Virus record (IMG/VR): IMGVR_UViG_3300045988_154997
Span: 37,871-101,870 of that record
Length of the DNA: 64,000 nucleotides
Direction: 5' to 3' (one strand)
Source: a virus
Taxonomy: Duplodnaviria > Heunggongvirae > Uroviricota > Caudoviricetes
Shown here: piece after piece, positions 1 through 62,520 of the stretch
Numbering within the stretch: the stretch's first letter is position 1
Layout of the letters: each line of letters starts with the position of its first letter
Notes under the pieces: model-generated
Database searches by the model: none
Seen by the model: only the letters and a program-made list of their open reading frames with translations
Told to the model about the DNA's origin: nothing
Program-made: the position numbers and the translations under genes

Positions 1-241
1 CATTCTAACTTATACTATGGTAAGGAATACTACTAAAATTTGTATCAATACTGAATACATTCATATCATATGCAAGTTACTTTTCTTACCTATTTTGGGC
101 TAATTTTTCTCCGTGCAATGGCCTTTAACCGGTCTTTTAAGTGCCTATCGAAAAAAATGATAATAGCTTTACAACCCTAACCTTTGATGTAATATCGGTA
201 AGCACTTACCAGAGAGAATTGAACGCGCAAAGGTTGTGACC

Positions 242-628
242 ATGTCTGATAACAAGATTGAATTTATAGAAAGTCGCTACGCTGCTTTTATCGCAGGGTT
301 GATTGAATCCTCACCTATGAGCCAGGCCCAGATAGCCAAAACAATTGGGTATAAAAACGCCAACAACCTTTCTTTAATTAAAAGCGGCAAAATTCCTTTG
401 CCTATCGATAAGGTTCGTCCGCTGGCGCTGGCACTGGGTATTGAGCCAAGTCGTCTTATGATGATGGTGCTGGAAGAACGCCAACCCGAACTCGCAGCAT
501 TTTTATACAAAGAAGGCACTGCTCCTCTTAACGAGGACGAAAAACAGGTTCTTGCTGCATATAACGAGCGATTCGGTAAAGAGAAAGGCGCATCACAAAA
601 GGTTGTTGAGGCCATAAAGTCTCTATGA
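242..628 (+). CDS. XRE-family HTH regulator (putative)
   Basis: ORF track 236..628 starts at GTG; first ATG at 242. HTH-like stretch SQAQIAKTIGYKNANNLSLIKSG. Converges on and overlaps the recombinase stop by 6 nt. Confidence 0.5.
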   Translation: MSDNKIEFIESRYAAFIAGLIESSPMSQAQIAKTIGYKNANNLSLIKSGKIPLPIDKVRPLALALGIEPSRLMMMVLEERQPELAAFLYKEGTAPLNEDEKQVLAAYNERFGKEKGASQKVVEAIKSL

Positions 629-1726
629 AAAATTTACACGAATAAGCTCTGTTGATAGACGATCTCCCTTAAATTTGTGGTCAATTTCGTCTAAATCCGG
701 TTGCTCTACGATTGATGCGATGTACGTCGAGAAACTTTCTAAGGCGTCTCGCATCTCGTCCATATAATCGTGCCGGTCGTAGACCCGATCTATCCCCTCA
801 AGACTGTGGTTCATGATTTTACGTGATACCTCCTGGCTTATGCCTAATGCTGGGAAGTAACTACGCGCAGTACGGCGCAAATCTCGGGGTGTAAATGGCT
901 CAAGCTCCATCAGTTCTGGTCGTTCCAGAATACGACGTAATGCCTGGGCTATTGCCACTTTAGACATAGGAAGGTCTTTCCCGATTTTTTTATTCGAAGG
1001 CACGAGCCACTGGCTGTCTTTACCATATTCGAACAACTCTTCAATACATGTGCGCATTAATGAGCTTAAAGGCAGAGAATGCTCACGGGCAGATTTGTTC
1101 CTCTTGCCTTGATTCCAAACCCCACGCTTAAGATTGAACTCACTTTTTTTAGCCCGCAGTACTTCGTCAGGTCGTCTTGCGGATACAAGACATAGCCTGG
1201 CCGCCCATTTTGTACCAGCACACACATTGAAGTAGTCCCATATATTCCAGAACACCCATACCTCTGCGTCGGTCAGCTTCCGCTCGCGAGGTGTGGGCTT
1301 TGCGCCACCGGCAACTTTGTTAAGTGACATATCGTTTAACGGTGACACGTCGATCATCCCCTGGAAGGCGCACCAGCTGAGGAACTGCTTCATCAGAGAG
1401 AAAACGCGGCGACCCATAACAATTTTGCCATCCAGTATTAGTGGGTTGACCAGTTGGTTCACCATGAACCTATTAATATCACTTACTTTTACATCGGCAA
1501 TGTGCGGCAAAACATGTATCAAAATACAATGAACAGCGATCTCTGGCCGACGTCTTGTTATCAGCAGAGATAAGCGAGTGAATAACATGAATGCGTCCGA
1601 GAATCTCATGTCATTGCTGACCTGGGAGATCATAACGGCCTGCATTTGAGATGCTCTTTCGAGATACTCAATCGCCTCTTTTGAGGTGTTCTCCGCAGCG
1701 CGTGCTCTGTCAAAGCTATTTTTCAT
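623..1726 (-). CDS. int: tyrosine recombinase / integrase
   Basis: C-terminal catalytic signature: ARRPDEV (Arg box), PRDLRRTARSY (box II-like), MNHSLEGIDRVYDRHDY (HxxxxxxxY with catalytic Tyr). Confidence 0.75.
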   Translation of the reverse strand: MKNSFDRARAAENTSKEAIEYLERASQMQAVMISQVSNDMRFSDAFMLFTRLSLLITRRRPEIAVHCILIHVLPHIADVKVSDINRFMVNQLVNPLILDGKIVMGRRVFSLMKQFLSWCAFQGMIDVSPLNDMSLNKVAGGAKPTPRERKLTDAEVWVFWNIWDYFNVCAGTKWAARLCLVSARRPDEVLRAKKSEFNLKRGVWNQGKRNKSAREHSLPLSSLMRTCIEELFEYGKDSQWLVPSNKKIGKDLPMSKVAIAQALRRILERPELMELEPFTPRDLRRTARSYFPALGISQEVSRKIMNHSLEGIDRVYDRHDYMDEMRDALESFSTYIASIVEQPDLDEIDHKFKGDRLSTELIRVNFS

Positions 1727-5805: not shown

Positions 5806-5895
5806 CAATCACAGCGTTGAGCGGTCTGGTTTATGTTAGCGGAGTCTTAATCGAGTTGATTAAAAGGCCAAACCGCTCAACGCTGTGTCTGGCGG
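5806..5895. repeat. long inverted repeat (15-bp arms ACAGCGTTGAGCGGT / ACCGCTCAACGCTGT, ~56-nt spacer)
   Basis: Read directly. Arms resemble those of a second IR at 6712-6833. Lies next to the 3' end of tRNA-Ser. Confidence 0.5.
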
Positions 5896-5899
5896 AGAG

Positions 5900-5986
5900 T
5901 AATGGAATCGAACCATCATCGTTTGCACAATGGGACGATTTTCAAGACCGCTTGAGCACCATGCTCCCTACTCTCCGGCCGTTGTG
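5900..5986 (-). tRNA. tRNA-Ser (anticodon UGA, type II) - tentative isotype
   Basis: 87 nt; reverse complement starts GGAGAGT, ends GGTTCGATTCCATTACTCTCCGCCA. Anticodon loop CTTGAAA. Long variable arm. Anticodon stem has two G-U pairs. Confidence 0.6.
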
Positions 5987-6200
5987 GTGGCCGGTACTGA
6001 ATCTCCGGCATACGGTGCAGCCAATTAGGACTACGGACGATCACCGCTCGCGAAAGGGAAGATTTGCGGCCGCATTTCCCTAACATCCAAGAAAGCTATC
6101 GCATCAGTCTGCGAATCCACCACAACGGTAAGATCACTACCTTTCGACCAGTCATTGTGCACATGAACGACGATTAACCGTAATGATCTTATCGTTGTAT

Positions 6201-6276
6201 TGGTGCCGGTTAACGGACTCGAACCGCTGACATCCTGCTTACAAGGCAGGCGCTCTACCAACTGAGCTAAACCGGC
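6201..6276 (-). tRNA. tRNA-Thr (anticodon UGU)
   Basis: 76 nt GCCGGTTTAGCTCAGTTGGTAGAGCGCCTGCCTTGTAAGCAGG...GGTTCGAGTCCGTTAACCGGCACCA; perfect acceptor and anticodon stems; CCA encoded. Confidence 0.8.
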
Positions 6277-6280
6277 AATT

Positions 6281-6367
6281 TGGTGGGGAGTGATGGAGTC
6301 GAACCACCCGAGTCGCAATGACAGTAGATTTACAGTCTGTCCCGCTACCTCTACGGACTAACTCCCC
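6281..6367 (-). tRNA. tRNA-Tyr (anticodon GUA, type II), atypical anticodon stem
   Basis: 87 nt GGGGAGT...ACAGA-CTGTAAA-TCTAC...GGTTCGACTCCATCACTCCCCACCA; resembles E. coli tRNA-Tyr but the two outer anticodon-stem pairs are C-A / A-C. Confidence 0.65.
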
Positions 6368-6372
6368 TAAAT

Positions 6373-6447
6373 TGGCGATGGTGGGTGGATTCGAACCACC
6401 GACCAGTTGGTTAACAGCCAACTGCTCTACCGCTGAGCTACACCATC
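6373..6447 (-). tRNA. tRNA-Asn (anticodon GUU)
   Basis: 75 nt GATGGTGTAGCTCAGCGGTAGAGCAGTTGGCTGTTAACCAACTGGTCGGTGGTTCGAATCCACCCACCATCGCCA; canonical cloverleaf. Confidence 0.8.
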
Positions 6448-6637
6448 AATTCAGCACTGCCAGTATTTATTACTCAACAGTGCCAATCGCGGCGGTGTTA
6501 GTTTCTGCCAGGAAACACACCGCTACTGGCACTTTCCGTTAGTGCCAGACGTTTTCGACTTCGCTCAATAGAAGGCAAAATCTTTAAGTAGATGATGTTT
6601 CTGAGGACAGCACCTACTTTGTAATTTATACAATGTG

Positions 6638-16006: not shown

Positions 16007-17203
16007 TTAAACATCTTTTAGAAAGCCTGGAAACCAATGTTTCATGATATACCTAAAATGTGCTCTAGTTGGTTCAAAAACCTGTCTAGATACCAGCGCT
16101 CCATCAGGATGATTCTGAACAGACTGTTCTTTTTCCATATCGTAAAAATTATGAGTTATCTCTGGGGGGAAGAAAATATTTCTGTCCAGTGGCACTGTCG
16201 CAAAAGGATTGTAGTAAATATGAAGGCCGTCAAAGTGCGTCTCTTCATGAGCAGTGGAATGGCAAACTACAATATCCGCACCAGTGACTTCGTTATTTAA
16301 AAAATGCCGATATGTAGTGATGAAATGATCAGGACCTATCCTTTGTGTGTGCTTTCCCTCGTTTTTCATCCCTTCATTGGCGATGAAATCATTCACATCA
16401 ATGGCTCGATATCGTGTTGACCTTACATATCTACCGATACCGCTTTGAACCACGGCTTTTCCAAAAGTGCCGGTGGTGGAGAAAATAACCGCACTTATTT
16501 CTTTATATGAGTCGTTAGTAAATATACCTAATGGAATTTCAACGTCTTCATTCTTTTTGATTGAGGTAACTTTAGTTTGGCTGCCAGTCACCAAATTTCT
16601 GGTGGTAGGTTCCTCAATGCCAAACAACACTCGATTGATGATTGTGTTATTTTGAGACAATGATAAATCGGAGTCAAAGGGTGCAAGCGCCAGAACAAAC
16701 GGCTTATTAACTACATGAGACATCGTAGAGTACGGGAATTTTTTGCCATTAACTCCTGTAAAAAGATCATGTTTGTCTTTGATTTTTCCGATTAATTTTA
16801 GCGTTGATTGATGTTTGAATTTTGATTCGCTAAAAAGAGCACCTGCAGGTGGATTATGTGGCCGATCTGATATCACAGCTTCGACGTTAAACTGGTAGCC
16901 TGACGGTGTAGTAACACAGAAATCGGGACTGTCTTTTGTGTAGTCGACAGAATAATCGAGACGAATAAACATTTCGTTCAGATACAATTCCCATAAGGCG
17001 GAATTGAAGGTTGTCTGAAACTCTTTAACGAATTTAGTCTGCTCACCGCTACGCTCCAGTAACCCACGCCCCCACGACTGTATCACTTCTCTTACTGGAG
17101 CATATGTATTATCTTGATAAATCTGTTTAAAAGATTCGTGCAGCTTGTTTTTTGCTATTTTGGTTGAGAACAAATCCATTATTAGCCTCACTAACCAGTT
17201 CAA
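16007..17203 (-). CDS. hypothetical protein (398 aa), partner of the DUF2971-like gene
   Basis: Long ORF, moderately AT-rich, no motif recognised; immediately downstream of the DUF2971-like gene on the same strand. Confidence 0.45.
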   Translation of the reverse strand: MNWLVRLIMDLFSTKIAKNKLHESFKQIYQDNTYAPVREVIQSWGRGLLERSGEQTKFVKEFQTTFNSALWELYLNEMFIRLDYSVDYTKDSPDFCVTTPSGYQFNVEAVISDRPHNPPAGALFSESKFKHQSTLKLIGKIKDKHDLFTGVNGKKFPYSTMSHVVNKPFVLALAPFDSDLSLSQNNTIINRVLFGIEEPTTRNLVTGSQTKVTSIKKNEDVEIPLGIFTNDSYKEISAVIFSTTGTFGKAVVQSGIGRYVRSTRYRAIDVNDFIANEGMKNEGKHTQRIGPDHFITTYRHFLNNEVTGADIVVCHSTAHEETHFDGLHIYYNPFATVPLDRNIFFPPEITHNFYDMEKEQSVQNHPDGALVSRQVFEPTRAHFRYIMKHWFPGFLKDV

Positions 17204-17245: not shown

Positions 17246-17965
17246 CTACTTCAGCTTTTCTTTGACAAGAAGATAACCATCATCAGGTGTACTCATTTTG
17301 TAAACCTCGATGCTCGTGTCTAGCTGTGTCCGGGCATATTCTTCTACTTCAGGAGAAACGTTATACCCAAGAATGATCTCTCTAATATATTTCTTATCAA
17401 ATGCCTGAGCGCCTATTTTTTTAGTAATAACCCTTTGTTCTTCCTCATATTTCCAGCATTCGTGCTTGTAGAAAAAGAGCTTATCAAAAAGTACCTTAAA
17501 CTCATCTGTAACTTCATCGAACACGGGAACAGAAGGTATATATTTCACATTATCAAAGCTGTGATACCCCTCAATAGAGGTAACAAAATCATCATCAAAG
17601 CCTATGCAGAAACCTTTATGCGACACTGAGTAATGTGACCACATCAAGATGTTATCTTCGTTTGGTGACAAGCACACCACACCAAAAGCCCCTAATGATT
17701 CTTTCCGCAAATCCACAGCCAACGATTTTGCAGCTTCAGGAGCTACAGCATCCCAGTCTTCAAAGGAAAAATCCTTACATCCATTGTCTTCAAAGTGTTT
17801 CCGGCGCTCCACTTCTGTACCTCCCATCGTTATCGAAACTTTGAACTCTGATGGGTCGTTGAATGAAGAAGGTGCGCTAGCAGAGATAGTGCCGTCCTCT
17901 ACAAACCGTTTGAGGTTACGTAACACTTTTTGCGAATCTTCACTTCCAATATATTTGTAGAGCAT
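17246..17965 (-). CDS. DUF2971-like protein
   Basis: First ATG gives MLYKYIGSED...SSFNDPSEF...NILMWSHYSVSHKGFCIGFD; the LYKY / FNDP / MWSHY pattern matches my recollection of DUF2971. Track start 18004 is TTG. Confidence 0.45.
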   Translation of the reverse strand: MLYKYIGSEDSQKVLRNLKRFVEDGTISASAPSSFNDPSEFKVSITMGGTEVERRKHFEDNGCKDFSFEDWDAVAPEAAKSLAVDLRKESLGAFGVVCLSPNEDNILMWSHYSVSHKGFCIGFDDDFVTSIEGYHSFDNVKYIPSVPVFDEVTDEFKVLFDKLFFYKHECWKYEEEQRVITKKIGAQAFDKKYIREIILGYNVSPEVEEYARTQLDTSIEVYKMSTPDDGYLLVKEKLK

Positions 17966-18009
17966 TAGGGAACCTATAGAAAGAGGTGCCAAGCAGCACC
18001 TCAATAAAA

Positions 18010-18369
18010 TTAACCTTTCTTCATCAACTCGCGTTTGATTTCATCGGTACGCATCGTGACGTCGGCAGCAGTGATCGCCTCGTTAAGTTTCACGATATCC
18101 TCGATTTCCTGCGGCGACTTCTCTGCCAGATGGAAAATAGCAGCACGAATCACATCAGAGCGGGTGAATTTCTCGAAGCGAGGGATGAACTTCATCATCT
18201 CCAGCAGTTCGAAGTATTCGTCTTCCAGTGACATTGTGCGGCTTTTAATTTTCTCTTTGCCACGAGTCGGGCGTCCCTGTGGTCTGACTGGTTGGCGCAA
18301 AGGAGTTGTGTTCTTAGCCGGTGCATCAGGCTCTTTGCGCTTTGCTAGGTCACCCATTTTCATGGACAT
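18010..18369 (-). CDS. small partition partner protein (ParG/ParB-like, putative)
   Basis: 119 aa, basic N-terminus then helical C-terminus; directly downstream of ParA with a 1-nt overlap, as in type Ib partition operons. Confidence 0.45.
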   Translation of the reverse strand: MSMKMGDLAKRKEPDAPAKNTTPLRQPVRPQGRPTRGKEKIKSRTMSLEDEYFELLEMMKFIPRFEKFTRSDVIRAAIFHLAEKSPQEIEDIVKLNEAITAADVTMRTDEIKRELMKKG

Positions 18370-19037
18370 TATTCTTCTTCCTCCAGACTCAACAGATAAT
18401 CTACAAATTCTTCAAACTCGGCTTCCGCCTTTTTGTCGCGCTCGCTACCGGTCATTTCAAAGATAGAACGACCAGACTCTTCCGCATCATCGTAGACGTT
18501 GCGGTTATATAGATTGACAGGCGCAGACTCGATGCCAAACGTCTCGACAATCTCTTTAGCCGCCAGAATGCGAGACACTTGTGATGGCAAAGCCGGGCAC
18601 TGGTTCATGACCGCGCGGACCTTCACTTTATCGTTTACATTGCGAACATTGTCGATAATAGGATCGATGTCACGTAAAGATTTCAAATCACGACGCTTAG
18701 GACGCAGCGGGATAATGATAACGTCAGCCATCAGCATCGCTTGTCGCTGAATTTCGGAGTCGAAGCCACCAGCATCTACCACTACATACTCAGCTCTACC
18801 CTGAAGCGATTTTAGGTGCTTAATGATGTCATCCTGAACGTATGCAAAAGGAATCAGCTCAAGGTCTTCGTTCTGTCGACGGTCTTCACACCAGCTCGTT
18901 GTCGTGCGCTGAATATCTATATCGGTGATATAAACCTTCTTCTTCTTTTTGACTTTCAGGCAAACGGCAATTTGCTGGGCAACGGTGGATTTGCCAGGCC
19001 CGCCCTTTGTGCCGCCAACCACAAAGATCTTGGTCAT
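18369..19037 (-). CDS. parA: ParA-family partition ATPase
   Basis: Deviant Walker A GGTKGGPGKST at the N-terminus, ~220 aa, acidic C-terminal tail. Confidence 0.8.
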   Translation of the reverse strand: MTKIFVVGGTKGGPGKSTVAQQIAVCLKVKKKKKVYITDIDIQRTTTSWCEDRRQNEDLELIPFAYVQDDIIKHLKSLQGRAEYVVVDAGGFDSEIQRQAMLMADVIIIPLRPKRRDLKSLRDIDPIIDNVRNVNDKVKVRAVMNQCPALPSQVSRILAAKEIVETFGIESAPVNLYNRNVYDDAEESGRSIFEMTGSERDKKAEAEFEEFVDYLLSLEEEE

Positions 19038-19073
19038 TGGAGAGTTCCCTTTGCGTATATAATTATCGTCTGA

Positions 19074-19100
19074 AACAACTTGTTTTCTTATATGTGATAT
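19074..19100. promoter_or_regulatory. conserved promoter/operator element (AACAACTTGTTTTCTTATATGTGATAT)
   Basis: Copy of the AACAAnTTGTTTTCT element ~40 nt upstream of parA. Confidence 0.45.
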
Positions 19101-19172
19101 AGCCTAAATGCCTACGGCTGTGGTGTAAAGGTTTAATGATAGGTACATAGATTTGGTAAGGACTTAATAACA

Positions 19173-19197
19173 AAAAACCCGCCGTAGCGGGTTTAGG
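19173..19197. terminator. rho-independent terminator (AACCCGC-CGTA-GCGGGTT), minus strand
   Basis: Hairpin followed by a T-run on the minus strand, 3 nt after the stop of the 19200..19976 gene. Confidence 0.6.
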
Positions 19198-27619: not shown

Positions 27620-30600
27620 TTACAGAAGGCCAATTCTTACTCGTAGGACGTTGTTATCGTCATAAACGTCAATCCGCTGACCATTTATGACCAGTCGCCC
27701 ATTACCCCCGCTATTACCGTTGATCTCAAGCGTTCCATTTTTGCCGAACCGCCATCCAGATCTACCGCTAACAAAATTGGTAGATTGCAGATCGCCTACT
27801 TTTGCATTGGTGATTGTGCCATCCTTGATATACGCACCATTCATATAGGCGATACTGTTTTCGATAACAAATGGCGTGGTGATCTTCCCGTTAACAGAGT
27901 TGACCAAACCAAACCTGTCAGCCTGCACCAAAAACTGAGAAAGGCCAGTGGTGTCGATACCAAGCGCAATACCAGCAACATACTTCTGCCCTCCGCTCGT
28001 TGAAGTTTCCATTTTCAACGTCCACGCGGTTGACACTTTTTTGTTGGTATCAGCAATAGCTGTTGCCTGCTGTTGAATTGTCGCGGTATTTCCATCCACC
28101 TCTGCTTTCAGAGTATCGATTCGCCCACTCAGAGCATTATCTGCCTGCGTTCTCGCTGTCGTTTCAGTTGTTACCGCCGCGGAAATGTTGGCTGCCGTTT
28201 GAGACTCTAAGTTTGTGATTTGAGTCGCCAATGCAGCATCTTGCTCTGTACGCGTTTTCGTTTCGGTTGCTACAGCCGCTTTAATATCCTCTTTGTATTG
28301 AGAGGTCAGCTTGGTGATCTGAGACGACAACGCCGAGTCAGCATCAGTTCGAGCCTGCGTTTCAACTGCAACGGCCGCACTAATATCTTTCGCTGTCTGT
28401 GCTTTTAAACTTGAAACCTCTTTTGTTAAAGCGGTATCACCATCAGCACGAGCCGTTGTTTCTCTGGCAAGAGATGCCTCGAGATCATTAGCTTTTGCTG
28501 TAAGAGACGAAATCTGAGTGGACAATGCACTATCGGCATCAGTCCTTGCCTTTGTCTCTACAGCAACCGCTGCGGCAATATCAGTTCCGGTTTGTGCTCG
28601 CAGGCTGTTAATTTCTCGTGAGAGCGCCTGGTCAGCACTTGCTCTGGCCTCCTGCTCCTGAGTGATGGCAGCGGATATATCACCGTCAACCTTTGACTGA
28701 AGCTGGTTTATTTGTTTGGCTAACGCAGAGTCCCCGCTTGCTCGGGCCTCCTGCTCACTACGTATTGCAGCAGAAATATCATCATCAACCTTTGCCTGAA
28801 GTTGGGTGATCTGGCTTGCCAGAGCCGAATCTTCCGTTGCTCGGGCTTCTTGCTCTTCCTTAATAGCTGCGACGATATCGTTGCTTACTTTCGACTCAAG
28901 CTGAGTGATCTGTGTCGTCAGAGCTTCATCGGCAGATGTGCGAGCCTCCTGCTCTGTACTAATCGCCGCGCTGATATCTCCTTCAAACTTAGATTGCAGC
29001 TGAGTGACACGCTTTGCCAACGCTTCATCGCCATCGGCACGAGCGGTGGACTCTTCCAGAATACTGGCCTTAATGTCTTCGCCAATTTCTACGCGAATTT
29101 CCTCAACCTTCGTGGCCATTGCAGACATATCATCAGCAAAGGTTTTCTGTGTTGTTGCGATCTTCGCGTTATTGACCATCTGCTTGTGCTGGTCTTCATC
29201 TTGACGAAGAGCCAGGTCAATATTTGTTTTGGCTAACGCCTCAATGTTCGTAGTCAGTTCTGCACTGGCACGATCGACCTCTGCAACCGTCTTTTTCATT
29301 TCTTCAACGGCAGCGGAGCTTTCCTCTACCGTTGACTGCAACACTTCCAGTTGTTTAGCGTTTGCAGCATCGCCTTCAACACGAGCCTCGCTTTCCTTAG
29401 CAATAAGAGCCGCCGCTTCATCTCTTGCAGCCTTTATTGCCTCGACTGTATTAGCGAGAGCTTTATCGTGTTCAGATACGGTGTTTTCGATTTCAACAAT
29501 TGCAGCATCAGTAGCATCAATTTTTTCAAACGCTTCATTGACCTTGTCGATCGTTGCCGAAACCTCACCTTTAAGCTCGGTTTGTGCGTTCTCCAAAGCA
29601 TCGCTACGCTCGTTGAATTTTATTTCAAAACCCGCGAGGTTATCGCTGAACTGCTTATCTAATTCAGCTATATCTTCCTTAACGTCGTTTACCGACCCCT
29701 CCAAAGATTCGACGCTCTGGTTGATATGCTCATTTAACTCGTCAACTGCTTCTTGAGAGGCTTTGCTGTTGATGTCCTCAAGCAGAGCCTGACCAAGCTC
29801 GGAAGATGTAATTTTGCCAGCCAGGAACGACAGTACATCGCGAGTTGTCGCCTCTGTACCCAAGTTTGAGTTCGGAGGGCTTAACATACCTCGCTTGTTC
29901 GATGCTCGAACCCAGTAATACCACGTTTCGCTATCCCCAAGACCAGCATGTGTAAAGGTGGTGCTTGCAGACTCTGCGATCAGTTTCGCCGTATCCAGAT
30001 TGTTGGTCTGGGATGCGTAAACATTAATGTGATCAAGGTCTACCGAATCTGGATTAACCCAATTCAGTATCACATTACGATAGTCTCCAACGGCCGTTAA
30101 TGACGTTGGTGCATCCGGCGGTGTCATTGTGCCCAGCACCTGATAAACGGTACTGATAATTTCTGTTTTTTTACCGTTGAATGAAACCGCATACAGTTGG
30201 AAGTCGTAGCGTCCATTCTCCGCGACATTAACGATTTCGTATTGCTCTTCGGTTACACGCGCCGATTGCCAGTTCGATACATTGTTTTCATCAGAACGTC
30301 GCCAACTGATCCAATACTCTGGAGATTTCCCTTCCCATGTTGCAGTCAGTTTTACTGACAGGTTGCCCGGGCTTGAGAGGTAAGTCCCTTCAGTGATTTG
30401 CAAATTAGACGGCTTGGAGTAAGTCGGGTCCAATACCGTCGTATTCTGCGGGATAAGCGTTGCACCATTGTCGATCGCCTCATATTTAGACGGATTGTTT
30501 TCAACAGCGGTGATGTCAAAGCTACCCGACGTTTCCCCCTGAGCGATGTTAACGATGCGAACGCGCATAGGTTCGAGATCTGGTTCTGTAATTGTCCAGA

Positions 30601-32350
30601 CACCGTTCAAAACAGGCGTTTCCGCTGACGACAGAGCTTTTGAAAACGTAACCTTTGTTATGTTTTCGCCAGTTTCAAGAACATCGCGCTCAACGATTTT
30701 GCCTTCCTGATTCAATATCCGAATAAAGCTGCCGCTTTTAGCTAACGACACAGGCGCATCGAGAGTGATGCTGTTTTTGGTAAACTCCACAATTCGACCG
30801 GAGTTACGTTTACCTGCACGATATTTGTTCTGAATCAGAACGGTTTCACCGGGCATCAGAAATGAGGCGTCTAAGCCGGCAGTAAATGTAATTACATCCG
30901 ACTCCATTCTGGCGGTATACAAAAGCCACAAACCAACTCGGTGAGCCTGGCCTCGGCTTGTACATCCAAATGCTACGACTTCTGTTTTACGCTCACCATA
31001 ACGGCGCATTGCGTCCTGATCTTCAACGTACTCGATATTTTGCTTATAACCGTCCTCCTTGTTGTTGTAGGTTACGAGCGCAACGGATGGGCGATCTTTA
31101 CGCGCAGAACCTTTATAGGTAAACAGTCCATCTTTGACGTTGGAGTTGGTAAACATCATTACCGGATCTGATGGGCTATCCTGCATGATGTTAACCATGC
31201 CACCAGCCCAAAACACCATGCCGCGGAATGCACCGGCAATATCCTGAATTAATCGGTATGCGTCTTGTCGACTGGTGATCTGCGTATTGATTGCAAAGCG
31301 TTTCTCTTTACCCCCAAAGCCATCATCGACCTCTTCGTCACAATATCGACCAATCTGGTAGAGCTGGCCGAGGTCAATCATGGATTCCGACACAAATTGC
31401 CCAAGACCATACCGAGTATTGGTAAGCAAATCGTAGAGAATCCACGCAGGGTTTGAAGAAGACAACAGCTTAAAAGTACCGTCCCATACGCCGACATAAG
31501 TATTGGTGTATTCGTTGTAGTTTGACGGTACTCGGATTTTGATACCGCGCACCAAATACGAACGGGAAGGCATTGTGCTACCAAACTGCTCTGAATTGAC
31601 CTTCAAGCCAACAAGAGCAGAGTTAGGGTAGTTCATTGGCGTGTCGACAATCTCACCGATGGAATCAACCCATGTGTCGTTGTAGAGGTACTGGCTACTG
31701 TTATCATCTGTAAGACGAATCACCCTAACCTTGTATGCACGACCAGGCTTAGGTAGTTTCAGCTCATAGCTACGGTAATACACGCCTGTTTTCTTTGCCG
31801 TTAGCGTGATATCAACGCTTTTCTCACCTTCTGCCACCACATCAGAAAATGTTGCGTCTCCGTTGGCGATCTGGAATTTGTACTTCACCGTAGTGCCATT
31901 TGTATCGCCAGAGCTTTTATCAACGCTACGTAAAGAGGGGAATTTCATGATGACACGAACGCGATCAGCTTCATCGTTATCGATTGAAACCGTAACGTCG
32001 TGTGTTTTTTTAAGCTGAATATTTACGGACTTAGGCGTTTCAACAAAATCAAAACCAGCCATTGGCGTCTGGTCTTGTGAGCCGTCACGAAAATCCCATG
32101 TAATACCGCTGAAGTTGGAAGAGCCATCTTCATTCAAGATCGGTAAATCGTCGATGAAGATCGACTTTGCGCCATTTACCAGGCCACCGATAACCCCCTC
32201 GCCAAGAAGGTCGAGGATGGCTGCCATAGCACGAGAATTGACAGTATCATCAGCTTCAACCGGGGTACGGCTGGAGCTTTTACTTTTCTTGCCACCAGCA
32301 CCGGCAATAAGAAGCGGTAATTTTTTCTTCTTGAACTGTTCCATGTCCAA
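27620..32350 (-). CDS. J: central tail fibre / tip attachment protein J with inserted tandem-repeat region
   Basis: N-terminal half aligns by eye to lambda gpJ (YPNSALVGLKVNSEQFGS, AFGCTSRGQAHRVGLWLL, KYVAGIALGIDTTGLSQFLV); contains ~10 tandem ~33-aa repeats. Confidence 0.85.
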   Translation of the reverse strand: MDMEQFKKKKLPLLIAGAGGKKSKSSSRTPVEADDTVNSRAMAAILDLLGEGVIGGLVNGAKSIFIDDLPILNEDGSSNFSGITWDFRDGSQDQTPMAGFDFVETPKSVNIQLKKTHDVTVSIDNDEADRVRVIMKFPSLRSVDKSSGDTNGTTVKYKFQIANGDATFSDVVAEGEKSVDITLTAKKTGVYYRSYELKLPKPGRAYKVRVIRLTDDNSSQYLYNDTWVDSIGEIVDTPMNYPNSALVGLKVNSEQFGSTMPSRSYLVRGIKIRVPSNYNEYTNTYVGVWDGTFKLLSSSNPAWILYDLLTNTRYGLGQFVSESMIDLGQLYQIGRYCDEEVDDGFGGKEKRFAINTQITSRQDAYRLIQDIAGAFRGMVFWAGGMVNIMQDSPSDPVMMFTNSNVKDGLFTYKGSARKDRPSVALVTYNNKEDGYKQNIEYVEDQDAMRRYGERKTEVVAFGCTSRGQAHRVGLWLLYTARMESDVITFTAGLDASFLMPGETVLIQNKYRAGKRNSGRIVEFTKNSITLDAPVSLAKSGSFIRILNQEGKIVERDVLETGENITKVTFSKALSSAETPVLNGVWTITEPDLEPMRVRIVNIAQGETSGSFDITAVENNPSKYEAIDNGATLIPQNTTVLDPTYSKPSNLQITEGTYLSSPGNLSVKLTATWEGKSPEYWISWRRSDENNVSNWQSARVTEEQYEIVNVAENGRYDFQLYAVSFNGKKTEIISTVYQVLGTMTPPDAPTSLTAVGDYRNVILNWVNPDSVDLDHINVYASQTNNLDTAKLIAESASTTFTHAGLGDSETWYYWVRASNKRGMLSPPNSNLGTEATTRDVLSFLAGKITSSELGQALLEDINSKASQEAVDELNEHINQSVESLEGSVNDVKEDIAELDKQFSDNLAGFEIKFNERSDALENAQTELKGEVSATIDKVNEAFEKIDATDAAIVEIENTVSEHDKALANTVEAIKAARDEAAALIAKESEARVEGDAANAKQLEVLQSTVEESSAAVEEMKKTVAEVDRASAELTTNIEALAKTNIDLALRQDEDQHKQMVNNAKIATTQKTFADDMSAMATKVEEIRVEIGEDIKASILEESTARADGDEALAKRVTQLQSKFEGDISAAISTEQEARTSADEALTTQITQLESKVSNDIVAAIKEEQEARATEDSALASQITQLQAKVDDDISAAIRSEQEARASGDSALAKQINQLQSKVDGDISAAITQEQEARASADQALSREINSLRAQTGTDIAAAVAVETKARTDADSALSTQISSLTAKANDLEASLARETTARADGDTALTKEVSSLKAQTAKDISAAVAVETQARTDADSALSSQITKLTSQYKEDIKAAVATETKTRTEQDAALATQITNLESQTAANISAAVTTETTARTQADNALSGRIDTLKAEVDGNTATIQQQATAIADTNKKVSTAWTLKMETSTSGGQKYVAGIALGIDTTGLSQFLVQADRFGLVNSVNGKITTPFVIENSIAYMNGAYIKDGTITNAKVGDLQSTNFVSGRSGWRFGKNGTLEINGNSGGNGRLVINGQRIDVYDDNNVLRVRIGLL
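28060..29010. repeat. tandem ~99-bp repeats inside the J gene (encode the 33-aa DISAAIxxEQEARxxAD repeats)
   Basis: Near-identical segments recur with 99-bp spacing (e.g. GCTCGGGCCTCCTGCTC at ~28737 and ~28836). Confidence 0.7.
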
Positions 32351-37800: not shown

Positions 37801-39463
37801 CGGTCGCCATCGTGGCAAAGGTGCTAACCATCTGGCTCCCAGCGCCAACTACCCCCATGATCCCTGCTCGCATCAGTTTGAACGCAACCATCGCGGCCAC
37901 GACCTTACCGAGATTAATTACCAGCTCTTGGTTCTTTGCTAACCATTGAGCAAGCTGACGCAACCCATCGATTGCCGTTGTTAACCCCGAACCTAAAGAA
38001 TTGGCAAACGAAATCCCTTCGGCGCTATTCATGATTGAAGCCAGTTCTTTCATCCCCTTCGATAGAGAATCCAGATATCCGGCCTGACCAACCCGATCAG
38101 CAAATAACGTGAATGACGTCTGAAGTTGCGCCAGCGCACCTGTGTAGGTTTGCATCATGTCTTTCGCTGCGTTCTCATTCTCCGCACGCAGACCAACAAA
38201 CATCAGAGACAACGCCTGTTTTGCCTCAACCGTACCGCTGGCAACGGCTTTAGTCAGTTCCCCCATAGTGATGCCTGCGGCGTCTGCCATTGCCTGCATC
38301 GCGTTAGGAACGGCTTCACCTAATTGCTGACGTAGCTCTTCCATTGACACAACGCCCTTACCGGACATCTGCTGAACGGCCACAGCCGCACGTTTCAACA
38401 GCTCACTATCACCACCAAAACGAGCAACGGAGTCCACCAGCGCCTTCAGAGAACCATCGGTTGGATCTAAGCCAGCAGAACGAAACTTCACGAAGGAGTC
38501 TGTTAACGCCTGCATCGCGAACGGCGCATTTTGAGCCATGTCTACGATGTACCTCATATCATCAGCGGCAGCCTGGCCCGGGTTGGACTTCTCCTTATTC
38601 AACCCTCGAAGCATCACCCGCATACGTTCCATTTCGGCCGCAGCTTCAACAATAGGCTTCTGCCACCCAAACATGATGTCAGTAACCGTTCTGGCTGCAT
38701 CTCCGATCTCGCCAAGCAGGAAAATGTTGCCACGAAGGCCAGAGAACATACCTCCTTCGTTACTTTTACCGCTATGGCCAGAAGCGCCGCTACGCCGCCC
38801 GCTACCACCATCGCCACTTCCAGATGTACGAACGCGTACCGGCTTGCTAATCAGTTGCTGACGTCCGATAACTTCGTCCATCTGCTCACGAACCTTTTTC
38901 AGTCCCTCGGCAGCCTGACTCGTTGTGACACCCCAATTACTGAGTCGCTTCGTCGTGGTATTAAGGCGCGTATTCATGCCACTCACGGACGCAGAGGCTT
39001 CTTTGACCTCCGTACCAAAGCGGCTTGCGCTTTTGCTTGCATAGGTCGCCCAATCAGAGAAATCATTTAGCTCTGATTGCACTTTACGTAATGACGCGGT
39101 GAGTTTATCTACTGAAGAAGTTGTCGTATCGACGCGCTCAATCAGGGCTTTAAGACCAGAATTGAGGCTGGTGATGTTGCCACGCATTTTACGCGTAGCA
39201 TCTGAAGCAAGCTCAAAACCGGCAGCTACATCCTGTAGTTTATCTGCCGTAGAATCGAGCTTGCTTTCCAGAACGCCAATGATACGGGCGACCGAACCCA
39301 AAGAGCGTTCAAAGGTTTGGATTTTTTGAGCAGGCTTTGTTACCTGCTCACCAAATCGAGTAAGCAGTTTCCCCGCACGATCGATTGACGCTGTAAACTG
39401 TTTGTCTTCCAGCGACAGGATAAACTCTACGTTTTGTGACATTCCCTTGTCATCCTCTGCCAA
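34889..39463 (-). CDS. H: tail tape measure protein
   Basis: 1524 aa, long helical/coiled-coil central region, hydrophobic Gly-rich segment; position between G-T and M. Confidence 0.85.
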   Translation of the reverse strand: MAEDDKGMSQNVEFILSLEDKQFTASIDRAGKLLTRFGEQVTKPAQKIQTFERSLGSVARIIGVLESKLDSTADKLQDVAAGFELASDATRKMRGNITSLNSGLKALIERVDTTTSSVDKLTASLRKVQSELNDFSDWATYASKSASRFGTEVKEASASVSGMNTRLNTTTKRLSNWGVTTSQAAEGLKKVREQMDEVIGRQQLISKPVRVRTSGSGDGGSGRRSGASGHSGKSNEGGMFSGLRGNIFLLGEIGDAARTVTDIMFGWQKPIVEAAAEMERMRVMLRGLNKEKSNPGQAAADDMRYIVDMAQNAPFAMQALTDSFVKFRSAGLDPTDGSLKALVDSVARFGGDSELLKRAAVAVQQMSGKGVVSMEELRQQLGEAVPNAMQAMADAAGITMGELTKAVASGTVEAKQALSLMFVGLRAENENAAKDMMQTYTGALAQLQTSFTLFADRVGQAGYLDSLSKGMKELASIMNSAEGISFANSLGSGLTTAIDGLRQLAQWLAKNQELVINLGKVVAAMVAFKLMRAGIMGVVGAGSQMVSTFATMATAIQTPFNLGATAVTRFNRAARMGLAPIPSLIFAIRGAITGLKGAFAGLTAFIAANPIGAAFTVATVAVAGLITYMTMLRSETSKVVDEIRKIPEAMTAAKRAQMADRAEKLEKQILADQRALKNGEGVNYVSNSAGVITHKESKADIEARLKKNQEEYQKITGTIALGDGAVAKRLAKEAAESQIEKIRAENQIFAATFVKARQEALDKIQKINDDGSLSDDEKNKLLAPLRETVNKSYLEPAQKLVDSLSSRKNATEKQIATLNDQLEKAKKDGNTEQIQKLQGSIRGYQEHLEAVAQELTQAEFERDNAAKTGKGVMSNQGTVLGLGTTDKAAQKALAQYMRNQMDSATYQRTLPDGTPMMDFEGKPIIGPKQLKTQLNLQKASSASSLEKMSDEERAAAIAALTKAREQDAAAAEKAAQRSANASQRAAKKEQAAQQKLAAGYQKALDKADQLMGQMGESSKATVSFDQSLRDTTKSLTDLANAVPNEFITQEMIDKAKKRLEDLKNATPEYREMFNRRNVEQMISTWAPEADSIISAGYTPSREDKVADFEGTYNRNLKALIELRDKASDPKVVALYTKKINQLIAAGNTALIKETGTATQKLALEYENLAEQIENTWTDLFSGLTDALTDFVINGKMSFSSLSQSILKDITNMVVKSQITLPLMNMLGMGTTAAGSSQSGNLLTGVASAVANQGVRMGNTVNGDKSVGEATKETSSSVTGLGQTTQQTTSAIGTATNAIGSWVSGLFDSTEAKDAETKAVKDSIFSMQNLSSVTGALSAAFAMLGANASGSGNKWLSFGATVASGLVSAWAGGGFDSVTSSSAKTATSSVADGTKGIPAIPKFANGGIFGKDGVIPLRAYQKGGIANSPQLALFGEGSMNEAYVPLPDGRTIPVTLSTDGMSGGGNVLSPVSIEINVHSDGSTTESGDTESIWNNAAQRMKAIALETIAQEKRPGGSLNPNTQRN

Positions 39464-60750: not shown

Positions 60751-60862
60751 ATACCAGTAAGAAAACGGCTACAAAGCATATTGATCAGGTGCATGAGCTA
60801 TATGCAGGTTCTTCCCTGCGGCTATAGAGAAATTAAGCCAGCAATGCTGGCTTTGGTTGGGG

Positions 60863-61213
60863 TTACTCGAATACTTCAAGAAACTCCTGAACGTCCCAAT
60901 GCTGGACGAGGTGAAGATAGACCTTAGAAATCACGTCATTTTCGCTATCGCATGTGAAGTAGTACTTCTGGCTGCGGTTGTATGTGTCCACACAAAATTC
61001 GCTCATATCCATAAAGTCAGCATCTTCACCCATGTCGCAAATCATCAAAGCAGGTGCGTCATCACGAGTCATCAGCTCAAGCACCCACCGCGAATTGATC
61101 AGAGTGGAAGACCAACCTTCTAACTCATAAAACTGATCAAACTCTTTTTGAGTTAATTTCTTGATTTGGTTGATGTCGATATTTGCAAACATAAAGCAAT
61201 CCTTAAACAACAT
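60863..61213 (-). CDS. hypothetical protein
   Basis: 116 aa acidic ORF; start possibly at the internal MFANIDINQ (61192). Confidence 0.4.
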   Translation of the reverse strand: MLFKDCFMFANIDINQIKKLTQKEFDQFYELEGWSSTLINSRWVLELMTRDDAPALMICDMGEDADFMDMSEFCVDTYNRSQKYYFTCDSENDVISKVYLHLVQHWDVQEFLEVFE

Positions 61214-61236
61214 GTTTTCTTGATGGTGTTATTATC
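61206..61236. promoter_or_regulatory. conserved promoter/operator element (AACAACATGTTTTCTTGATGGTGTTATTATCG)
   Basis: Copy of the element at the 5' end of the 60863..61213 gene. Confidence 0.45.
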
Positions 61237-61555
61237 GCAATAACGCACAGGCGAAAAAGGATTTTATTCCGGTGAATGTGGTTTTGGCAGTGAGTTTTCA
61301 GGTTCAGTACCGAGTACACTTTTTACATTATTCTGATTTAGTGGCCGAAAGTGGCTGGTGGGCAGAATAATCCTCTCCCCGAAAACCTACTGAAATCGAT
61401 TGTGACCCGTTGGCTGTCTGGCACAATTACGCTGTAGCTGGGCATTCAGAGGGAATCCAGCGGTAAGCAAGTCCGCCTGCACGTGAGCGCCTCTCTTCTT
61501 CCCGCACATTACAGGTGGGTAGCCGCAACTCTCCCTCTCGCTATACCGGTACGCC

Positions 61556-61690
61556 GCCGTTCCTGAACCGGCATCGAGCCTTTTCCCGAAATCCACACAG
61601 GCAACTCGACCGTTTCCCTGAAAACCTCCAGCCGTACCCCGAAGGCAACCCAGCCGTTTCTGTAGCGGGATGCAGCCTTTTCCCTGTATG
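61556..61690. repeat. iteron-like direct repeats, array B (6 copies of GCCGTTTCCCTG-type 10-mer at ~22-bp spacing)
   Basis: Copies start at 61556, 61578, 61609, 61631, 61653, 61675; spacing 22 bp (one 31-bp gap). Confidence 0.6.
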
Positions 61691-61899
61691 GACCGAAGGC
61701 TGACCGTAGGGGTGTTACGGGGGATAAAATCAGGAGTTGAATAAATACGAAAAAGGAGGCGACACCCCTCCTTCCCTCCCGACTTATACATACCTGGCTT
61801 CTTCGCTATACATGTTGTGTTTTCTTCGTGTTTTATCTGTTTCAACCTCTCTATAGGCGTTAATGCTCACTCCTTCCAGAACGTTCTATACGGCGACTA

Positions 61900-62520
61900 T
61901 TTCTGTTGGTGAATTGGGTGTGTTGTTTTCTCTGTCGGTGTATGTGGTTTCGTTAGTTTTGCGGTGGTTCTTCTATGGGGTGTTCTCGTCGTTTTGGTGA
62001 TTGTTCTTCTCCGTCTATGGAGTAATGGCAGGTGGGCGATTGCTTTCGTTATTGTGTTTGAGTTGTTTGTCTGGAGTGTGTGAAAGGCTTTTGTAGTTAT
62101 TCGTGTATTGGGTAATGGCGTTTCCCGTGATTGTTATGTTTCGTGTCTTTTGGGATTGAGAGAAACCTTGCGGTTACAGGCTTCGTTGGGGTTTCAGTGA
62201 TTCTGGTGTTTCTTCGCTGTTTGGGTAATGGCGTGTCGTGGGTATCGCGCGTATGAATGTTTTCGGATTGCCTGTGAAAGTTAGGTTGGTTGTCCGGTAG
62301 CCTGGGGAGAAGAGGTGGGTCTTTTCGGTAGCCTGCCATAAAGAGGTTGGCTGTTTTGGGTAATGGCATATGTGTTATTTAGTTGTTTTGTTATGCCTGA
62401 AAATAAGTTGTTTATATGTTTGTGTAACGCAACGGGAACGATTTTGAGCGTGTGTTTTTGTTGGTAGTGTGTTGGGTCGTCTGTGGTGAAAATTGGACGC
62501 TGTGGCGCTGTCTGCTGCGT
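61900..62520. repeat. G+T-rich strand-biased non-coding region with internal repeats
   Basis: Plus strand almost only G and T; GGGTAATGGC recurs at ~62111, ~62223, ~62359; two tandem 31-bp repeats at 62295-62357; no credible ORF. Confidence 0.5.

Follow-up and report, generated by a model that had tools for sequence, protein, structure and literature searches.

The closest described systems are the type Ib partition cassettes, of which parFGH of TP228 is the archetype. In TP228 the gene for the partner protein ParG follows that for the ATPase ParF, ParF is a small ParA without an N-terminal DNA-binding domain, and ParG combines a flexible N-terminal tail with a small C-terminal DNA-binding domain. 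The cis-acting region (parH/OF) lies upstream and overlaps the promoter (PMC3130281). We analyzed a two-gene cassette, consisting of parA and a following gene for a small basic protein (the partner), in a 64,000-nucleotide (nt) stretch of viral DNA (positions 37,871 to 101,870 of IMG/VR record IMGVR_UViG_3300045988_154997; the whole stretch is referred to as the window). The cassette resembles parFGH in each of these respects, the domain organization of its partner being predicted and its upstream cis-acting region a candidate, and ParF was the top relative of ParA among solved structures. The cassette differs from parFGH in that its partner is longer (119 vs 76 amino acids, aa), has two extra helices and shows no similarity to ParG, and in that no tetramer-box or other repeat array of the kind present in parH was found. 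In our assessment, the cassette is probably a type Ib-like partition system that forms a self-contained unit in an SSU5-type phage-plasmid.

Other known systems resemble the cassette in part. The ParA/ParB pair of pCXC100 follows the same operon logic and provides a precedent for a type Ib partner that cannot be classified by sequence search, as its ParB is a centromere-binding protein without a recognizable sequence motif that was identified as a ribbon-helix-helix (RHH) protein by crystallography (PMC3074162). The two systems have no detectable sequence relation (the partner has no sequence match in the PDB), and the host of pCXC100 is Gram-positive. Homologues of both genes are present on Acinetobacter pittii pOXA58_100004 and Pseudomonas amygdali p2_tig3, and the partners encoded there have the N-terminal GL..K peptide and the RS(D/S)V.RAA helix. 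In contrast to the element studied here, these are ordinary mobilizable plasmids, and the predicted strand residues of their partners differ; as far as could be searched, no characterization of either pair was found. ParAB-parS of P1 and SopAB-sopC of N15 have the same role as that proposed here, stable inheritance of a plasmid-replicating prophage. However, P1 and N15 partition is of type Ia, with a large ParA that has an N-terminal regulatory DNA-binding domain and a helix-turn-helix (HTH) ParB, whereas ParA of the cassette has 222 aa and its partner has no match to the ParB family in Pfam. The annotation of SSU5 already included a parA gene, and the carriage of partition genes by phage-plasmids is known (PMC7969092). 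The cassette studied here has a partner of an unclassified family and an unusual, repeat-free centromere candidate.

A reading made from the sequence alone (the sequence-only reading) had described the first gene as encoding a ParA ATPase with a deviant Walker A box, and our analysis confirmed this. The box (GGTKGGPGKST, residues 8-18, with the signature lysine K11) aligned with NPKGGSGKTT of ParF, and Walker A' (DIDIQ) and Walker B (VVVDAGG) motifs were present at residues 39-43 and 85-91. ParA matched AAA_31, MipZ and CbiA in Pfam and PHROG 164, the 'ParA-like partition protein' family (E 2e-51). ParF of TP228 (4dzz, 5u1g) was its top match in the PDB (E 3e-10), with residues 9-199 aligned to ParF residues 8-189 over nearly the full length, followed by MipZ, which matched the N-terminal part only, PF-32 and Soj. 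The top NCBIfam family was NF041546 (ParA_partition), which matched over the full length with 115.5 bits (curated cutoff, 180 bits) vs 29.5 bits for MinD, and a PADLOC search with ParA gave no match. ParA was therefore found to group neither with MinD and Soj nor with phage-defence ATPases. Its ATPase core begins at residue 2-9, an N-terminal HTH or other DNA-binding extension, the hallmark of type Ia, is absent, and its size is inside the ~200-230 aa range of type Ib proteins. Among the 2908 plasmid records found by tblastn with ParA, those below 60% identity were ParA genes of ordinary plasmids, including the distant relatives at 30-47% identity. No other ParA-type gene is present in the window or in the remainder of pLH09-a-C, the closest related plasmid. 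By sequence, ParA is a small, type Ib-sized, Walker-type partition ATPase.

The organization of the locus is that of an operon. The stop codon of parA shares one base with the start codon of the partner gene (TAATG). The upstream gene ends in a terminator-like hairpin, which forms the 5′ boundary of the par transcription unit, and a second such hairpin directly after the partner stop codon forms its 3′ boundary. Because of the overlap and the terminators on both sides, the pair looks like a self-contained bicistronic unit. DNA similarity among relatives spans the region from ~107 bp 5′ of parA to precisely the partner stop codon, with different genes on either side; thus, the cassette behaves as a unit that includes its leader. 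A parA homologue was found immediately 5′ of the partner relative in all 10 of the species-level genome loci. The pairing was kept in elements of Morganella, Xenorhabdus and Photorhabdus, where ParA identity is 51-54% and partner identity 35-42%, and the type Ib layout proposed by the sequence-only reading, a ParA followed by a small basic partner, was upheld down to the lower ends of these ranges (51% and 35%). The same pair in the same order was also present on the A. pittii and P. amygdali plasmids, next to plasmid maintenance genes such as a recombinase. Their ParA proteins (43-45% identical) are the closest ParA relatives outside the SSU5 group, and their partners matched the partner family profile with hhalign probabilities of 96-98% (E 3e-9 and 5e-12), the Acinetobacter partner aligning from the N-terminal peptide through the C-terminus. 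The presence of homologous pairs on non-phage plasmids indicates that the cassette belongs to a wider family of plasmid maintenance units common to phage-plasmids and ordinary plasmids.

We also determined on which elements the cassette resides. The par module is 98% identical to that of Escherichia phages PhiR41_1, CMS-2020a and Cyrano (pLF82), 86% identical to that of Salmonella phage SSU5 and ~80% identical to those of Klebsiella phage-plasmids. The window aligned with E. coli plasmid pLH09-a-C (111 kb, circular) with 99.6% identity over its first 19.6 kb and 100% identity in the par region, the overlaps outside the par region being 99.6% and 97.3% identical. Judged by these alignments, the window is part of an SSU5-like phage-plasmid, closest to pLH09-a-C. 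The cassette was present in 261 of 5426 complete E. coli genomes (~5%), at 262 places, every one of them on a plasmid and none in a chromosome. PLSDB contained 774 plasmids with the module, mostly of 100-120 kb and non-mobilizable. These counts agree with the extrachromosomal phage-plasmid lifestyle that had been suggested, and the element was not one found only in integrated form. The sequence-only reading had also placed the module amid phage replication genes, which was incorrect; the lysis cassette (20.5-22 kb) is on one side of the module and the helicase/primase genes (12.4-15 kb) are on the other, with variable cargo genes separating it from both. The window does not include the RepB replication initiator of pLH09-a-C, and there is no iteron array next to the cassette.

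Published RNA-seq data for Cyrano, an inducible phage present at ~5.5 copies per cell (PMC9928086), provide information on expression of the cassette in a lysogen. In overnight LB cultures the normalized counts were 49.8 for ParA and 89.1 for the partner, with 133 for RepA, 95.8 for the repressor and 49.5 for the integrase; most structural and lytic genes had about 5-12 (PMC9928086 S1 Table). The par operon is transcribed in lysogeny, and since its counts fall in the range of those of RepA, repressor and integrase, its promoter is active in the plasmid state despite a palindrome in its leader that is considered below.

The second gene encodes the candidate centromere-binding protein. RefSeq annotation of pLH09-a-C starts this protein two codons later (18363), which gives a length of 117 aa. 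The protein had been described as basic and helical, and this was confirmed: its isoelectric point (pI) is 9.6, that of residues 1-47 is 11.4, and AF2 predicted with low confidence that residues 1-47 are disordered and followed by four helices (48-59, 70-82, 86-97 and 101-118). In the family alignment, the N-terminal peptide (MGDLAKR/K) is invariant and is followed by a variable linker; an invariant basic segment then runs into I-K-S-R-T-x-S-L/M-E-D-E, and there is a helix start of T/S-R-S-D-V-x-R-A-A. Residues I41, R44, S47, E49, R70, D72 and R75 are invariant. The predicted architecture is an N-terminal peptide, a basic disordered linker, a probable RHH core at ~41-84 and two more helices at the C-terminus. 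The family is tiny, with 25 clusters among 5.8 billion proteins and 18 representatives among 1.8 billion, and it corresponds to PHROG 5111, a family of unknown function.

Several profile libraries gave weak RHH signals for the partner family. The NCBIfam RHH family aCcr1_fam was detected in 9 of 13 members (best E 1.6e-4) and Pfam RHH_1 in 2 of 13 (E 0.005), RHH_3 was detected in the Acinetobacter homologue (E 0.012), and CopG was matched by hhalign in the right register (E 0.019). Because these weak signals came from several libraries and the protein contains an extended segment, a helix-loop-helix and the sequence RSDVIRAA, an RHH fold is probable. A Pfam scan of the partner identified no family. 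PDB sequence and profile searches with the partner gave nothing significant; the RHH protein ORF56 was at E 1, and the basic helix-loop-helix (bHLH) protein SREBP topped one profile search at E 0.05. Fold searches with low-confidence monomer models also gave nothing significant. Membership in the ParG family (PF09274) was considered and rejected, as hhalign comparison with a 15-member ParG alignment gave E values of 0.47, 0.37 and 0.21 and there was no Pfam match; single-sequence comparisons with ParG and omega were negative.

We next consider the leader. Positions 19062-19136 are invariant or nearly so in the elements of E. coli, SSU5, Klebsiella, Enterobacter and Salmonella, for which the parA coding DNA is ~80% identical. 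In a sliding-window comparison of 14 loci, identity reached 0.90-0.95 at 19071-19100 vs ~0.8 for coding DNA, making this segment the best-conserved 20-30 nt of the module, and the 14-locus profile collapsed at ~19145 and at the partner stop codon. The promoter-distal, par-specific part of the block (19086-19136) is unique in the window and the remainder of pLH09-a-C, a second copy having been sought elsewhere on the element and not found. Candidate sigma-70 promoters (TTTACA-17-TAGGCT or TAGGCA-16-TATAAG) were recognized in the leader by eye, with none reported from a consensus promoter scan. Its conservation makes the block the leading candidate for the cis-acting site of the cassette. Two other explanations of the leader were rejected. 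An 8-bp phasing of TAGG/TAAG boxes, as in parH, was no better than in shuffled sequence, and an RNA element was supported neither by an Rfam match nor by folding, which was no better than for shuffles (z 0.70). In P. amygdali p2_tig3, several TGCATA/TATGCA motifs lie 5′ of the homologous parA (locus L022, 1330-1467); these are possibly a repeat-type centromere that is absent from the SSU5 group, the statistics being weak (p about 0.09). A conserved TATCTTAT motif in distant elements was also considered as a site for the partner and set aside, as it looks like a -10 element common to another promoter.

Table 1. Features of the par cassette and its surroundings, in window coordinates.
Feature	Position	Strand	Description
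Terminator-like hairpin of upstream gene	19175-19194	minus	Upstream limit of par transcription unit
Ultraconserved non-coding leader/promoter block	19062-19136	minus	~75 bp; candidate cis-acting site (promoter, operator, centromere)
Par-specific, promoter-distal part of block	19086-19136	minus	Two TAGGC pentamers 8 bp apart; palindrome TATATCACATATA at 19089-19101
13-bp palindrome AAACAAGTTGTTT, extended form AGAAAACAAGTTGTTTCA	19073-19085		Proximal part of leader; operator-like
parA	18369-19037	minus	222 aa; from open reading frame (ORF) list
Partner gene	18010-18369	minus	119 aa from first ATG; candidate centromere-binding protein
Terminator-like hairpin after partner stop codon	17983-18002	minus	Downstream limit of bicistronic unit
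Gene directly downstream of cassette	17246-18004	minus	DUF2971 protein; PADLOC candidate PDC-S31, E 2e-38
Next downstream gene	16007-17203	minus	PD-T7-5, E 1.5e-139

Our model predicts that a promoter in the conserved leader drives a translationally coupled bicistronic operon that is bounded by terminators at both ends. The partner would dimerize through its probable RHH core and bind the ~75-bp block 5′ of parA, and this binding would serve both autoregulation and assembly of the partition complex. The MGDLAKR/K peptide and basic tail of the bound partner would engage nucleoid-bound ParA-ATP dimers and increase their ATPase activity, much as the ParG tail acts on ParF. The resulting ParA gradient would move and separate copies of the ~110-kb plasmid, of which there are about 5 per cell in Cyrano, before division. 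The 13-bp palindrome in the proximal part of the leader would most likely be the operator of a separate, phage-wide regulator, such as the HTH protein encoded beside the integrase, and this regulator would tie par expression to the prophage regulatory circuit. We infer the fold of the partner, its DNA target and its activation of the ATPase by analogy with ParF/ParG (PMC3130281, PMC7308502) and pCXC100 ParB (PMC3074162); the identity of the palindrome-binding protein is likewise a prediction.

Several points weigh against this model. Type Ib centromeres are usually repeat arrays, and seed-based, phased-box and both-strand k-mer tests detected no repeat array near the cassette beyond shuffled controls, although the power of the k-mer test was low, with the positive example from P. 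amygdali reaching a p value of only 0.09. Within the leader, k-mer repeats on both strands were fewer than in shuffled sequence. The three tests agree with the sequence-only reading, which had noted no obvious centromere repeats next to the operon and had called for a search for repeats bound by the small protein. The centromere could be elsewhere on the element. In addition, the ParA score is lower than the curated cutoff of NF041546, which is an equivalog family. The palindrome of the par leader is also shared with promoters silent in lysogeny, a feature that the model leaves unexplained. Finally, the literature that could be searched contained no stability or binding experiment for any member of the family and no paper characterizing the system, the partner or the centromere.

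The palindrome itself bears on the main alternative to our model. AAACAAnTTGTTT is located 36 nt upstream of the parA ATG and occurs at 9 sites in the window (15045, 19073, 49913, 49938, 59054, 59818, 60721, 61205 and 62401) vs 0.49 expected, so that the conserved promoter/operator element previously noted before the operon is real. With the sites in pLH09-a-C added, the total is ~20. The copies lie 15-40 nt 5′ of the start codon of the first gene of minus-strand operons with replication, nucleotide-metabolism and packaging functions, among them those of the helicase, a small-terminase-like gene (PHROG 867) located before the large terminase gene, nrdB and a cobT-related gene, the last two sites being located in pLH09-a-C. 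As a separate observation, AAACAAnTTGTTT often has a TAATTAAC-like -10 box and AGA in front of it. P1 has dispersed C1 operators that are comparable to this set of sites, and in RK2 (KorB/IncC), pSM19035 (omega/delta) and N15 (dispersed sopC sites) there are precedents for a partition protein that also acts at dispersed sites. The partner might by this reasoning be both a centromere-binding protein and a global regulator that silences the lytic operons from the ~20 dispersed AAACAAnTTGTTT sites, which would double as dispersed centromeres for ParA. One protein would then couple plasmid segregation to silencing of lytic operons, a KorB/omega-like arrangement in a phage. The recurrence of the operator-like palindrome of the par leader at about 20 promoters resembles the situation in RK2 and pSM19035, no par-specific repeat array was found, and an RHH dimer could be accommodated by a 13-bp palindrome whose half-site centers are separated by 7-10 bp. 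The operons headed by the palindrome are also silent or nearly so in the Cyrano lysogen, with normalized counts of 7.1 for terS, 12.9 for nrdB and 21 for the helicase (PMC9928086 S1 Table); the presence of the palindrome in Cyrano was ascertained for parA and the helicase alone, the other operons being assigned from the element studied here.

Nevertheless, we consider it unlikely that the partner acts in this way. Unlike in RK2 and pSM19035, nothing ties the partner to the palindrome, and the comparative evidence opposes such a link. The palindrome was present at the parA and helicase promoters in all 14 SSU5-proper loci and absent from both promoters in four distant SSU5-like elements, yet these four keep the gene pair and the partner strand residues IKSRTvSmE. 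The retention of the same strand residues in elements without the palindrome argues that another protein binds it. Moreover, the par operon is expressed in lysogeny with its palindrome, whereas the other palindrome promoters are not. The palindromes resemble a set of operators for a separate phage-wide regulator, and the HTH regulator beside the integrase (236-628) is the obvious candidate and a more conventional binder. Its Cyrano homologue CYRAN_45, annotated as a 'putative repressor', and the integrase are both expressed in lysogeny (PMC9928086). In the window this XRE-type HTH gene (236-628, plus strand) adjoins a tyrosine recombinase gene (623-1726, minus strand); in a prophage maintained as a plasmid, the role of the recombinase may be multimer resolution and not integration.

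Two further alternatives concern the identity of the proteins. ParA might not be a partition protein and could instead be a ParA/MipZ-like positioning or division factor, or a defence or anti-defence device, with the small protein as its adaptor. In PGAP annotation some copies are called 'division plane positioning ATPase MipZ', the Pfam MipZ match has an E value of 2.7e-13, and the neighboring genes PD-T7-5 and DUF2971/PDC-S31 are of the defence type. This identity is quite unlikely, as the MipZ match spans the N-terminal 130 residues alone, whereas ParF and NF041546 match over the full length. The PADLOC search, negative for ParA, gave a match at chance level alone for the partner (E 0.006 over 24 residues). 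The defence neighbors are variable cargo that is absent from relatives in which the cassette is constant, homologous pairs lie beside maintenance genes on ordinary plasmids, and the gene encodes the sole partition-type ATPase of a low-copy 110-kb plasmid. It has also been suggested by annotation that the small gene is a toxin, in which case the pair would be an addiction module: its counterpart in the Cyrano record, CYRAN_29 (locus L002, 5999-6358), is labeled 'RelE/ParE putative toxin' and appears as a toxin moron in PMC9928086. No profile search supported this label. For 13 members, no toxin family was found in Pfam up to an E value of 10 and none in NCBIfam, the disordered basic N-terminus and helical domain are unlike the compact RelE fold, and the upstream gene encodes a ParA ATPase and not an antitoxin. 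A RelE/ParE-type toxin is therefore very improbable.

With the cassette interpreted as a partition system, the gene after parA can be assigned as its probable centromere-binding partner and the RelE/ParE toxin annotation corrected. The analysis also defines the borders of a ~1.14-kb unit (18010-19145) suitable for direct cloning. Phage-plasmids of the SSU5/pHCM2 type are frequent among E. coli, Klebsiella, Salmonella Typhi and Shigella. These elements, which in addition carry genes for resistance and defence, depend on maintenance functions for stable inheritance. The degree of surprise is modest, as a partition system is expected on a low-copy phage-plasmid of 110 kb.

The genes that flank the cassette differ among elements, being of the defence type here, a KacT toxin-antitoxin pair in Cyrano and different again in further elements. 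Judged by their profile matches, the two genes that follow the cassette resemble cargo for anti-phage defence. Since the genes on either side differ among relatives, both flanks of the cassette appear to be cargo hot spots.

Inspection of the rest of the window revealed a stretch of ~1.5 kb at ~60820-62400 that has no annotated gene in pLH09-a-C and contains several families of 16-37-nt direct repeats. These include TGTATTGGGTAATGGC in 3-4 copies, a 37-nt pair at 61551/61648 and two copies of the palindrome. A function as an origin or as a non-coding RNA region is possible, and the repeats may be the iterons mentioned in the sequence-only reading. According to the pLH09-a-C annotation, four tRNA genes (Ser, Thr, Tyr and Asn) are located at ~5890-6450. 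Lastly, a 1576-aa ORF at 27620-32350, which probably encodes a tail-fibre or host-specificity protein, contains four tandem 99-bp (33-codon) repeats at 28607-29002 that are 62-72% identical to the first copy.

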